64,000 nt of DNA from a virus. Under the pieces are notes generated by a model that did no database searches, was not told the DNA's origin, and saw only the letters and a program-made list of their open reading frames with translations. The position numbers and the translations under genes were made by a program. Where the stretch lies: the IMG/VR virus record IMGVR_UViG_3300032093_000013; one strand, given 5' to 3'. This document shows, one piece after another, positions 28,668 through 49,531 of this stretch (position 1 is the first letter of the stretch; each line of letters opens with the position of its first letter).

Positions 28668-28742
28668 TAGCGGTGGCGAGATTCGAACTCGCACTGTATT
28701 GATTTTAAGTCAACTGCCTGCTGCCGATTGGGCTACACCGCC
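28668..28742 (-). tRNA. tRNA-Leu(UAA) with short variable loop
   Basis: cloverleaf; anticodon loop CTTAAAA; TTCGAAT; no encoded CCA. Confidence 0.85.
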
Positions 28743-28781: not shown

Positions 28782-28855
28782 TGCTCGTTGAGAGAATCGA
28801 ACTCTTCCTACGGCGCTTTATGAGAACGCTGCCTTCACCAGATGGCTAAACGAGC
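28782..28855 (-). tRNA. tRNA(CAU): elongator Met or Ile2
   Basis: cloverleaf; loop CTCATAA; paired G1-C72, so not an initiator. Confidence 0.85.
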
Positions 28856-47080: not shown

Positions 47081-47716
47081 TTAGACCCACTCAAGAGCTT
47101 CTGCAACTGTCGGGAATTGCTCAGAAAATACTTTTTTGCATTCAAGAGCAATATCCATATGCTCTTTTTGAGTACCATTGGCAGATCTAAGTGTTATGTA
47201 ATGTATCCACGACCTGCAAGAACCCGTCATATAGATGCGTGTGGGCGTCGCTAAAGGCAATACAAATCTTGCACACTCTTTTGCTACACCTGCCTCTAAC
47301 ATTCGCTTGTAGAGGTTATTAGAGTGCTTAAACAATTCAGCAATTTCTGCCTGAAACTTAAGTTTTACATAGTCACCAAGATCATCTGTGGAGTTTTGAC
47401 GATTCTTGGTATCTTGTTTACGAAGATCTGGAATAGGAATATTTTCGGTGATTAGATTTGTGTCAGCATACCTTTGTGAAAATTCCTGAAATGTAAAGGA
47501 CCTGTGTCGAAGTATCTGAGCTGCGATACCACGGTTAGTTTCAATCTCAAGACTCATAGAAGATTGCTCAAACACAGACCAATGATTGTGCTTAATACAA
47601 TAACGTAGCAAACCCGCATAGTTTTCAGAATCCTGATTCTCTGGATTACTAACTCTCGCAATAAACGCCATTGTTTGTTCTGCATCGGGAGTCACGCTGA
47701 TAAGTTTTACAGTCAT
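47081..47716 (-). CDS. thyX: flavin-dependent thymidylate synthase
   Basis: HWSVFEQ; RHRSFTFQEFSQRY signature. Confidence 0.95.
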   Translation of the reverse strand: MTVKLISVTPDAEQTMAFIARVSNPENQDSENYAGLLRYCIKHNHWSVFEQSSMSLEIETNRGIAAQILRHRSFTFQEFSQRYADTNLITENIPIPDLRKQDTKNRQNSTDDLGDYVKLKFQAEIAELFKHSNNLYKRMLEAGVAKECARFVLPLATPTRIYMTGSCRSWIHYITLRSANGTQKEHMDIALECKKVFSEQFPTVAEALEWV

Positions 47717-48423: not shown

Positions 48424-48450
48424 AAAAAAAGGAGGAGATCAACCCCTCCG
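48424..48450 (-). terminator. rho-independent terminator of the riboswitch operon
   Basis: GGAGGGG-TTGA-TCTCCTCC followed by a T-run. Confidence 0.7.
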
Positions 48451-48454
48451 ATTT

Positions 48455-48538
48455 CTACTTAAATAAAAATTGAATATAAAGCGACAATAAAACAAGTACA
48501 ACCGCAGATCCTGCGGCAATTTGTAATACTGCGAACAT
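48455..48538 (-). CDS. 27-aa single-TM peptide
   Basis: MFAVLQIAAGSAVVLVLLSLYIQFLFK; TGATG overlap. Confidence 0.55.
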   Translation of the reverse strand: MFAVLQIAAGSAVVLVLLSLYIQFLFK

Positions 48539-48636
48539 CACTTTGCTCCAACGAGTTGTGCTAGTTGTGCTTGGTGACGGCGCTCTTCTTTTTGTTTTTG
48601 CTCTTTAATGATTTGAAGGAAGTTAAGTTTTTTCAC
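48538..48636 (-). CDS. 32-aa basic helical peptide
   Basis: GTG start, AAGGAGG RBS, GTGA overlap. Confidence 0.6.
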   Translation of the reverse strand: MKKLNFLQIIKEQKQKEERRHQAQLAQLVGAK

Positions 48637-48770
48637 TTGTGCCCCTCCTTTACAAACTTAACACCACGATAGGTTTCGTTGTATTGTTGGGCTTGTTGTT
48701 GCATTTGCTGTTGGTATTCAATACGCTTTTGAGTATCGTATTCAACACCACGATATACGACTTTAGACAT
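48633..48770 (-). CDS. DUF4278-family protein (45 aa)
   Basis: two YRGV motifs; AAGGAG RBS. Confidence 0.8.
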   Translation of the reverse strand: MSKVVYRGVEYDTQKRIEYQQQMQQQAQQYNETYRGVKFVKEGHK

Positions 48771-48801
48771 TAGGTTTTCTCCTTAATTTTGAGGCTAAAG
48801 A

Positions 48802-49036
48802 GCGTTCCTTCAGTCGGCTTTTGCGTCTATTTTGCACTCTTTTGGAGTAATCTGTTTGATTTCCCAAACCAAGTCATTTTTTGCTTGTTTTGGAATATCA
48901 ACTTTATGAATTCTCCCAACCATTAACTGTGCTTGAAGGCAAGTTAAAAGAAGTGTTTCCATAGATGAACGACCTATAAGTAGGTTTTAATCCGTTCCGA
49001 GTCGGCTTACTTCCGTCTGGTTTCCCAGATGAACGA
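48802..49036 (-). ncRNA. tandem glutamine riboswitch (glnA motif-like)
   Basis: aptamer 1 CGTTC-A-TCTGG-GAAA-CCAGA-CGGAAGTAAG..GAACG; aptamer 2 CGTTC-A-TCTAT..ATAGA..CTGAAGGAACGC. Confidence 0.75.
48810..48962 (-). CDS. 50-aa ORF nested in riboswitch aptamer 2
   Basis: METLLLTCLQAQLMVGRIHKVDIPKQAKNDLVWEIKQITPKECKIDAKAD. Confidence 0.65.
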   Translation of the reverse strand: METLLLTCLQAQLMVGRIHKVDIPKQAKNDLVWEIKQITPKECKIDAKAD

Positions 49037-49043
49037 TGAGAGT

Positions 49044-49073
49044 ATTATACTCCCTTTCGTGGATATTTATCAA
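49044..49073 (-). promoter_or_regulatory. sigma70-type promoter with overlapping late TAAATA
   Basis: TTGATA-N18-TATAAT. Confidence 0.65.
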
Positions 49074-49079
49074 GTATGA

Positions 49080-49099
49080 TTTGTATCATACGATACAAA
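49080..49099. promoter_or_regulatory. NtcA-binding site
   Basis: TTTGTATC-ATAC-GATACAAA = TGTA-N8-TACA palindrome. Confidence 0.65.
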
Positions 49100-49156
49100 T
49101 TTATAAAATCTTCGCGTGAGAAAATTTTGCCGGAATTTTTTGCCCCTTCTGGGGAA

Positions 49157-49531
49157 TCACTTACGCTTTTTCTTTTCGGGTGCCTGATATCCCCAGAGTT
49201 TTGGATTAATCTTTCCATAACCCCAGTCAATATTACGAACTACTGGACCGAGATTATCGTAATACATATCAAACAAATTAGATCTCTTTCCACAGCGTGT
49301 TAAATCATAACAAGTTTTACCATCAATTTGATAAGTGACTATGTAAGCATCAGTTGGAACTTGACTGTCTTTTGCTTCTTCTAGAGTACAGTTTTGTTTG
49401 ATAACTTCACACCCATATTTTGATTTAAACAATTCCTTTTCTTCGGGAGTCCAGGCATGGTTTAAATCTTTATTGGGCGCCTCTCCTTTATCTGATGGCA
49501 TCTTTGGTTTTTCTATAAGATTTTTTTCCAT
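49157..49531 (-). CDS. conserved cyanophage hypothetical protein
   Basis: 124-aa ORF. Confidence 0.7.
   Translation of the reverse strand: MEKNLIEKPKMPSDKGEAPNKDLNHAWTPEEKELFKSKYGCEVIKQNCTLEEAKDSQVPTDAYIVTYQIDGKTCYDLTRCGKRSNLFDMYYDNLGPVVRNIDWGYGKINPKLWGYQAPEKKKRK

Follow-up and report, generated by a model that had tools for sequence, protein, structure and literature searches.

A conserved small gene nested inside a probable interlocked, double-core glutamine-I-type riboswitch of cyanophages

Results

Organization of the locus

The DNA analysed here (the window) is a 64,000-nucleotide (nt) stretch of IMG/VR virus record IMGVR_UViG_3300032093_000013, whose source is a lake-type cyanophage. 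Its minus strand carries two glnA-like riboswitch units in tandem, the second of which has a complete 50-codon open reading frame (ORF) inside it. A first-pass annotation made from the letters of this DNA had described two such aptamers with the ORF nested in aptamer 2, and every feature that it listed was recovered: aptamer 2 (half 2) occupies 48971-48802, its AUG (48962-48960) falls within the UCUAU strand, and its UGA (48812-48810) takes in the final base of AGCCGACU and the GA of GAAG. We argue below that the ORF is a gene and that the two units very probably form one RNA.

Transcription is predicted to start at about 49037, the first base of the riboswitch. Reading along the minus strand, the promoter is followed by AUCGUUCA-UCUGG-GAAA-CCAGA-CGGAAGUA-AGCCGACU-CG-GAACG, a 21-nt linker, CGUUCA-UCUAUGG, about 125 nt, AUAGA-CGCAAA-AGCCGACU-GAAG-GAACG-C, CUCUUUAG, UUAAGGAG, an ORF of 45 amino acids (aa), two micro-ORFs and a terminator-like hairpin that is the probable end of an operon of about 0.6 kilobases (Table 1). 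The only Pfam match of the 45-aa protein is to PF14105 (DUF4278), at 19.7 bits, which is under the cut-off of 25.3; its homologues score 20.3-24.7 bits. Its Shine-Dalgarno (SD) region is paired with an anti-SD segment in an 8-base-pair (bp) hairpin in every fold tried with RNAfold, and the hairpin is present in relatives too. The first base of this hairpin is C 48802, the equivalent of C60 in known glutamine-I aptamers.

In Rfam, half 1 (49037-48989, minus strand) matched the glutamine-I (glnA) model RF01739 at 39.2 bits, over the gathering score of 35. A scan of 48600-49200 gave no match to half 2 at E up to 10, because about 125 nt sit inside its P2 stem. The ORF-less counterpart of half 2 in phage S-CREM1 scores 33.5 bits against the same model. 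The glutamine-II model RF01704 gave no match in the scanned region at E up to 10. A covariance model that we built from the ORF-less form of the fold proposed below did not bridge the 125-nt insert, and it reported the window's element as two partial matches.

Table 1. Features of the locus in transcript order, with positions in the window and helices named after the proposed fold (SD, Shine-Dalgarno; aa, amino acids).
Feature	Position	Strand	Basis
Sigma-70-type promoter, TTGATA-18 nt-TATAAT	49044..49073	-	11/12 consensus matches
Outer P1, 5' strand CGUUC; pairs with 48807-48803	49031..49035	-	Sequence, compensatory change, RNAalifold
Outer core P2 hairpin, UCUGG-GAAA-CCAGA	49016..49029	-	Rfam alignment
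Outer J2/3, CGGAAGUA; G22 equivalent 49014, linchpin G23 equivalent 49013, AGUA half of E-loop	49008..49015	-	Rfam alignment
Shared helix P3c, strand a, AGCCGACU; antiparallel pairing with 48819-48812	49000..49007	-	Covariation
Inner P1', 5' strand GAACG, classically the 3' strand of aptamer 1; pairs with 48971-48967	48993..48997	-	Folds
Linker capping inner P1', 21 nt; G 48992 is the inner linchpin partner of C 48823	48972..48992	-	Comparison, fold
Inner P1', 3' strand CGUUC	48967..48971	-	Sequence, folds
P2', 5' strand UCUAU; holds A and U of the nested start codon	48961..48965	-	Covariation
Nested gene, 50 codons and UGA; two-Cys helix-loop-helix small protein, phrog_504 family	48810..48962	-	Conservation, profile, AlphaFold2
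P2', 3' strand AUAGA; also Ile-Asp codons	48826..48830	-	Covariation
Inner J2/3', CGCAAA; also Ala-Lys codons; G22' at 48824, linchpin C at 48823	48820..48825	-	Sequence, linchpin counts
Shared helix P3c, strand b, AGCCGACU; the UGA stop begins at its last base	48812..48819	-	Covariation
GAAG, 3' half of the outer core E-loop	48808..48811	-	Sequence, Rfam consensus
Outer P1, 3' strand GAACG	48803..48807	-	Compensatory change, RNAalifold
Linchpin base 48802 (C60 equivalent) and anti-SD CUCUUUAG; pairs with 48786-48779	48795..48802	-	RNAfold
SD region UUAAGGAG of the downstream gene	48779..48786	-	Sequence, RNAfold
DUF4278-like 45-aa gene (IF17-like, YRG repeats)	48633..48770	-	PF14105 match
Intrinsic-terminator-like hairpin with U run	48431..48449	-	Sequence

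The nested open reading frame

Relatives were collected by scanning IMG/VR with a pattern for the 3' core of the second unit, which returned 119 contigs. In 53 of these GTTCA lies 15-59 nt upstream; four of the 53 bear an ORF with an internal GTTCA, leaving 49 plain-hairpin loci. The upstream distance to the 5' strand is 143-200 nt at 69 loci, which represent 67 distinct elements. All 67 elements have a homologous ORF of 49-66 codons at the same position. Its AUG follows the C of CGUUC by 9-11 nt, and the same UGA ends it in 64 of them (66 of the 69 loci). Among cultured phages, BLAST searches turned up an ORF nested in the aptamer in the same way in the Synechococcus phages S-SRM01, DSL-LC02 and DSL-LC03. 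On this comparison the nested arrangement is far beyond chance, because it is present in 67 distinct IMG/VR elements and in three isolates.

The ORFs show the marks of protein-level selection. Over 3638 codons the reading frame is free of stops, whereas the other two frames have 311 and 378, and the length differences among homologues are multiples of three. In a 30-member clade, the ratio of nonsynonymous to synonymous substitution (dN/dS) in the middle of the ORF is about 0.36-0.40, with the second codon position conserved and the usual variability at the third. In the family, two Cys residues are invariant across protein sequences that are only 10-25% identical. AlphaFold2 predicts a helix-loop-helix with a predicted local distance difference test (pLDDT) score of 88. 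The family phrog_504 (function unknown) is matched by 58 of 65 family members, with a best E of 5e-25; the window's own protein matches it weakly (E 0.007, 17 bits). A profile search retrieved 986 protein clusters, all unnamed or 'hypothetical', and a protein atlas search with the nested protein returned unnamed clusters only. No informative PDB neighbour was found in a fold search at E up to 0.001. NblA was considered as an identity for the nested protein and rejected, there being no Pfam match at E up to 1 and no fold match at E up to 0.001, and NblA itself does not appear among the fold neighbours.

The nested AUG has no SD sequence and lies 4 nt after the hairpin that we call inner P1'; the first and last codons are, moreover, also under pairing constraint. 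Both points would suit an untranslated frame that is a by-product of constraints on RNA structure, the 125-nt insert being a long structured extension of P2. Lack of an SD is, however, common among genes of cyanophages and cyanobacteria, and the stop counts, the multiple-of-three indels, the dN/dS, the contrast between second and third codon positions, the invariant Cys pair and the confidently predicted helical hairpin all speak against a by-product, which we regard as very improbable. From these comparisons we conclude that the nested ORF is a real conserved gene.

The stem enclosing the gene and the inner core

The first-pass annotation had proposed an aptamer that closes around the ORF, and the stem P2' does covary among the 67 elements. 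Counted from the junction, pair 3 is UA in 31 elements, CG in 33 and UG in 3; pair 4 is AU in 30, UA in 12, CG in 13 and UG in 11, with 1 mismatch; and pair 5 is UA in 39, AU in 19, UG in 6 and CG in 2, again with 1 mismatch. Five perfect pairs are found in 65 of the 67. The mean run of consecutive pairs is 7.04, compared with 4.14 +/- 0.25 for shuffled partners (maximum 4.99 in 2000 shuffles). The helix reaches 11-14 bp in many relatives and then takes in the entire AUG. Within the clade of the window it extends over roughly the first five codons, whose partners are the final codons ahead of the core, and exchanges between CACUC/GAGUG, CAUUC/GAAUG and CAUUU/AAAUG are visible by eye in the extension. 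This covariation marks the enclosing stem as real. The gene's final seven sense codons, together with its stop, run through the 3' strand of P2', J2/3', P3c and the beginning of the E-loop.

The inner P1' hairpin is formed both by the unconstrained minimum-energy fold and by RNAalifold, and our scan found no variants of its strand. The linker that caps it is a loop of 3-6 nt in 108 of 109 elements; in the window it has a hairpin of its own (ACCUA-CUUA-UAGGU), which directly abuts CGUUC. An ACGCA core such as that of J2/3' is also seen in the glutamine-II riboswitch sequence given in PMC6698751.

Pairing between the two halves

The first-pass annotation noted that the two units are degenerate in complementary ways, unit 1 having GGAAGUA without GAAG and unit 2 the reverse, and this holds in all relatives, with or without ORFs. 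The E-loop is complete only in the composite of AGUA (49011-49008) and GAAG (48811-48808), each of which adjoins the shared helix P3c; neither half has both. All four pairs of the outer P2 covary in relatives. The local P3 hairpin of glutamine-I is missing: each half allows a hairpin of 2 bp at most, and the 8-nt segments pair between the halves instead.

In P3c, AGCCGAC-N (AGCCGACN), which follows AAGUA of unit 1, is antiparallel to N'-GCCGACU, which precedes GAAG of unit 2. Across 109 distinct elements its end pair is always Watson-Crick (U-A 75 times, A-U 18 times, G-C 16 times), whereas shuffling the partners 10,000 times gave 59.5 such pairs on average and 76 at most. The end pair has changed about 6 times on the tree of ORF-less elements and about 6 times on the nested-ORF tree, always on both sides, with no contrary case. 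Position 4 of unit 2 is other than C in 13 contigs, all of which have AGCUGACU there and AGCCAACU in unit 1, so that pair 5 goes from G-C to A-U in 13 of 13. The AGUUGACU of DSL-LC02 still pairs in P3c, by way of G.U and A-U, and one contig (L144) has an uncompensated change. We regard the shared helix as well supported by this comparative evidence.

In S-SRM01 (L001:1861-1895), P3c pair 1 is C-G, not A-U: the nested UGA has become GGA, which removes the stop, and an A-to-C change in the first-half partner preserves the pair between the halves. The ORF of this phage runs on to a UAA that is part of the anti-SD (CUUUAA) and lies 21 nt ahead of the next AUG.

The glutamine-I P1 (CGUUC/GAACG, with the ligand-contacting pairs C1:G59 and G2:C58) is present, and comparison puts its pairing across the halves. 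L145 and L146, the only contigs with a variant outer P1, combine AAACG in unit 2 with CGUUU in unit 1, and their unit 1 GAACG and unit 2 CGUUC are unchanged. No A56 variants of the outer P1 were found in the scan. RNAalifold, unprompted, gave the long-range outer P1 together with the inner GAACG-loop-CGUUC hairpin for ORF-less relatives, and when 30 ORF-less elements are aligned, 99.5% of cells are paired under the swapped model and 95.2% under the unswapped.

The linchpin points the same way. A ligand-dependent linchpin pair between G23 of J2/3 and C60, which immediately follows P1, is known from the solved glutamine-I aptamer (PMC11477058, PMC6212724); the roles of G22, G23 and C60 are those given in PMC11477058, which summarises the structure of Ren et al. 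2015. In the window G 49013 is complementary to C 48802, in the other half. Among the relatives, the unit 1 J2/3 base (G or C) is complementary to the unit 2 post-P1 base (C or G) in 92 of 92, and the unit 2 J2/3 C is complementary to the first linker base after the P1 of unit 1 in 90 of 92, whereas closure within a half would be mismatched in 42 of 92 in each half. A full strand swap is thus probable on the comparative evidence.

Two independent tandem aptamers, the second with a P2 loop that tolerates a passenger gene and has no translation-sensing link, would be the conventional account of the locus. Its P2 loop lengths do vary, Rfam does score half 1 as a complete aptamer, and the literature (PMC9481103) lists such RNAs as tandem or pseudo-cooperative. 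Independent aptamers would be self-contained, and these are not: a helix, P1 and the linchpin are all exchanged between the halves, with covariation in each, and either half alone is without half of the E-loop and, in the freshwater type, also without a linchpin of its own. Nor is the ORF ever free in a loop with its own ribosome-binding site; in every element (67 of 67 for this arm, 42 of 42 for the other) it begins at an AUG inside the stem and finishes within the core or immediately ahead of it. We therefore consider independence improbable. The first-pass annotation had left a choice between aptamer 2 folding alone and a composite of both units, and the comparative data favour the composite, closed around the ORF.

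Taken together, these comparisons indicate with high confidence that the two 'aptamers' are a single interlocked RNA with two sensor cores, one inside the other. The complementary degeneracy of the units would then be a design feature, arising because a helix and strands are exchanged between them. Sequence comparison in this way establishes both the topology of the proposed fold and the reality of the gene.

Distribution among cyanophages

The architecture is, by comparison of sequences, widespread in cyanophages. An ORF-less tandem is found in the cultured phage S-CREM1, where it is annotated as a glnA riboswitch. The variant core ACGCAAA-NGCCGACU-GAAGGAACG has 5 matches in 185,579 species genomes, all of them on phage-like contigs of metagenome-assembled genomes (MAGs) or single-amplified genomes (SAGs), and was seen on phage or phage-like contigs alone.

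The first unit can hold a gene as well. In all 42 long first units an AUG lies 10-11 nt past CGUUC and opens a two-Cys ORF of 61-69 codons, which ends in or just before the core, often at a UAA within AAGUAAGCC. In P-SSM4 each arm carries a gene (PSSM4_169.2 and 169.3), and the DUF4278 gene PSSM4_170 comes next. L071 has a downstream leader nearly identical to that of the window, yet its gene is in the other arm.

Several further observations concern these relatives. Both arms hold annotated 'hypothetical' genes in P-SSM4 (L129:805-1218) and in P-HM2 (L130; PHM2_179 and PHM2_180), and in this form the sensor is about 430 nt long and chiefly coding. A subfamily of first-arm ORFs (L022, L027, L049, L055, L071, L074, L099, L111 and L112) begins MTKALLLLAWVPLLSVS..., a start that resembles a Sec signal peptide; its two-Cys hairpin may be exported and disulfide-bonded. 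Three loci (L040, L024 and L122) have a second-half core with no recognisable first-half core within 45 nt upstream, and may be single units or have a gene in the linker; the sequence upstream of L040 looks coding. In marine-type elements (for example L005, L012, L014 and L057), the base after the outer P1 opens a small covarying hairpin (GGGG/UCCC, GGAU/GUCC, GGGGU/ACCCU) with no obvious anti-SD, and the expression platform may work differently from that of the window.

Neighbouring features

The two micro-ORFs lie in the same operon before the terminator, each overlapping the preceding stop codon: one (48538-48636, minus strand) encodes 32 aa rich in lysine and glutamine, and the other (48455-48541, minus strand) a hydrophobic product of 28 aa that resembles a transmembrane segment. 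An NtcA-box-like palindrome, GTA-N8-TAC (GTATCGTATGATAC), is found at 49083-49096 (minus strand), 33 nt 5' of the -10 box; its centre is about 52 nt before the predicted start, one helical turn beyond the canonical -41.5. Such GTA-N8-TAC boxes also lie upstream of the riboswitch promoters of many marine relatives. Elsewhere in the window, two tRNA genes found with Rfam (28668-28742 and 28782-28855, minus strand) and an ORF for a ThyX-type thymidylate synthase (47081-47716, minus strand) fit the genome of a T4-like cyanophage.

Discussion

We propose that 49035-48802 (minus strand) is one glutamine-I-type riboswitch of 234 nt with two nested sensor cores. In the outer core, P1 would be made of CGUUC from aptamer 1 and GAACG from aptamer 2, P2 would be the hairpin of aptamer 1, J2/3 would be ACGGAAGUA, and GAAG of half 2 would complete the E-loop. 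The helix P3c, in which AGCCGACU of half 1 pairs with AGCCGACU of half 2, would join the outer core to the inner one. The latter would consist of the hairpin of half-1 GAACG and half-2 CGUUC, capped by the linker and completed by P2' and ACGCAAA, with P2' closing around the 50-codon gene.

Initiation at 48962 needs an open P2' and probably also an open inner P1' hairpin. A ribosome that reads to the end of the ORF opens J2/3', P3c and the E-loop, and the outer P1 comes within its footprint. Since translation of the nested gene thus takes apart portions of the sensor, translation and the folded sensor exclude each other by geometry.

A possible outcome is suggested by the gifB leader of Synechocystis, in which, as described in PMC6212724, glutamine turns translation on, probably by pulling C68 (the C60 equivalent) from a helix that blocks the ribosome-binding site. 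At high glutamine, the ligand would lock the fold, bury the nested AUG and turn the nested protein off; the linchpin G49013-C48802 would at the same time draw C48802 from the anti-SD/SD hairpin and turn on the DUF4278/IF17-like gene, as with gifB. At low glutamine, the RNA would be open, the nested gene translated, and ribosome traffic would hold the sensor unfolded. This would make a reciprocal, possibly hysteretic, switch between two small proteins. We regard the nested-core fold with its reciprocal switch as the best explanation of the locus as a whole and hold it to be modestly probable; the reciprocal logic itself, which comes from the analogy with gifB, is possible and put forward tentatively.

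The same interlocked fold could serve another logic, in which glutamine, or an open 5' half, permits translation of the nested ORF and both genes are on together. The folded sensor would then be the resting off state for both, and a ribosome terminating at the UGA would cover GAAGGAACGCUCU and melt the anti-SD hairpin in the style of a leader peptide or of translational coupling. The genes do form one operon with one promoter and one terminator, and from the stop codon it is 9 nt to the anti-SD and 39 nt to the next AUG. In the gifB model, however, with C48802 starting the anti-SD, the ligand-bound fold opens the SD yet buries the nested AUG, giving the two genes opposite signs, and 64 of the 67 distinct elements stop before the outer P1 and do not run into the platform. 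We therefore think positive coupling less likely, though it is the main rival.

Several points weigh against the interlocked, reciprocal switch that we prefer. In S-SRM01 the nested ORF has lost its stop and runs into the anti-SD, so that passage of a ribosome would turn the downstream gene on; this argues for positive coupling over reciprocity, at least in that phage. Tandem glutamine aptamers have been reported to be non-cooperative in vitro, as cited in PMC5066625. The strand swap rests on the linchpin and on one covarying P1 pair, the latter seen in two contigs. The linchpin G/C state has changed once on the tree of ORF-less elements; the approximately 6 changes on the nested-ORF tree could come from recombination of ORF cassettes between two backbone types. 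By nearest-neighbour energy the swapped fold (-56.5 kcal/mol) comes behind two separate P1 helices (-59.4) and the unconstrained minimum (-64.6), although these values leave out tertiary contacts and the ligand, and folding does not discriminate between the models. The invariance of the C-terminal DAKAD of the nested protein is imposed by the search pattern and carries no weight. Lastly, that this RNA binds glutamine, at how many sites, and in which direction it regulates are all inferences.

If the reciprocal switch applies beyond the window, cyanophage 'tandem' glutamine riboswitches could be single, strand-swapped, double-junction RNAs whose P2 arms socket one or two genes of the two-Cys family. 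Competition between ribosome traffic and glutamine binding might then yield a reciprocal, possibly bistable, switch during infection, between the nested proteins at low glutamine and an IF17-like inhibitor of glutamine synthetase at high glutamine. We offer this generalization as a conjecture that may well not hold in full.

We know of no other riboswitch with a conserved protein-coding gene inside a helix of its ligand-binding domain; the present one would be the first, and one in which the fold of the sensor and translation of the gene are physically exclusive. It would account for standard Rfam scans missing or under-scoring such elements, would place phrog_504 (about 1000 protein clusters of unannotated small cyanophage proteins, including those of P-SSM4) in the regulation that follows host nitrogen status, and would be a compact natural design for two-output RNA switches. 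It would also answer the remark in PMC5066625 that the tandem glutamine arrangement has no known benefit: the units would be halves of one fold, with the E-loop, P3 and the linchpin complete only when both halves are together.

Comparison with known systems

As far as sequence comparison can tell, the element is a new architectural variant of the glutamine-I riboswitch (RF01739). With the gifB/IF17 leader of Synechocystis PCC 6803, as described in PMC6212724, it shares the P1 CGUUC/GAACG, the P2 hairpin, the J2/3 ACGGAAGUA, the GAAG half of the E-loop, a linchpin base that directly follows P1 and leads into the anti-SD, and a downstream gene that may be of the DUF4278 type. It differs in that P3 is an 8-bp helix between the halves and no local hairpin, the P1 strands are probably swapped and form two nested cores, and a P2-type stem holds a complete conserved gene, for a length of 234 nt compared with about 60.

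The tandem glutamine riboswitches of the literature likewise have two glnA-like units a few nt apart before one gene (PMC5066625, PMC9481103). PMC5066625, which cites Ames and Breaker 2011, describes the aptamers as separated by few nucleotides, and 157 pseudo-cooperative glutamine-riboswitch doublets are counted in PMC9481103. Unlike that picture, covariation here indicates one interlocked fold. We found no published description of a nested gene or of an inter-aptamer helix in the glutamine-riboswitch literature, with a mention in Ames and Breaker 2011 not excluded, and the text of the Weinberg 2010 supplement makes no remark on inserts or nested ORFs in glnA RNAs.

With the glutamine-II riboswitch (the Downstream-peptide motif, RF01704) the inner core shares a J2/3 of the ACGCA type and the lack of an E-loop (PMC6698751); the same paper reports that a glutamine-II RNA can be divided into two strands, which come together when the ligand binds. 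Here, in contrast, there is no pseudoknot with downstream sequence, nor a match to RF01704.

Two further systems place an ORF within a structured RNA. Leader-peptide ORFs, such as mgtL in the Mg2+ leader of Salmonella mgtA and those of attenuation leaders, are short sensor peptides in the expression platform. As in mgtL, translation of a short ORF within a regulatory leader would decide the structure of the RNA, but the ORF described here encodes a conserved folded protein family (phrog_504) and lies inside a helix of the ligand-binding domain. The ORFs of group I introns are wholly within loops and are mobile passengers. The likeness to their homing-endonuclease genes is that of a gene in a peripheral stem-loop with a functional RNA core pairing across it; the difference is that, in the cyanophage element, the start and stop codons are themselves built into the stem and core of the sensor.

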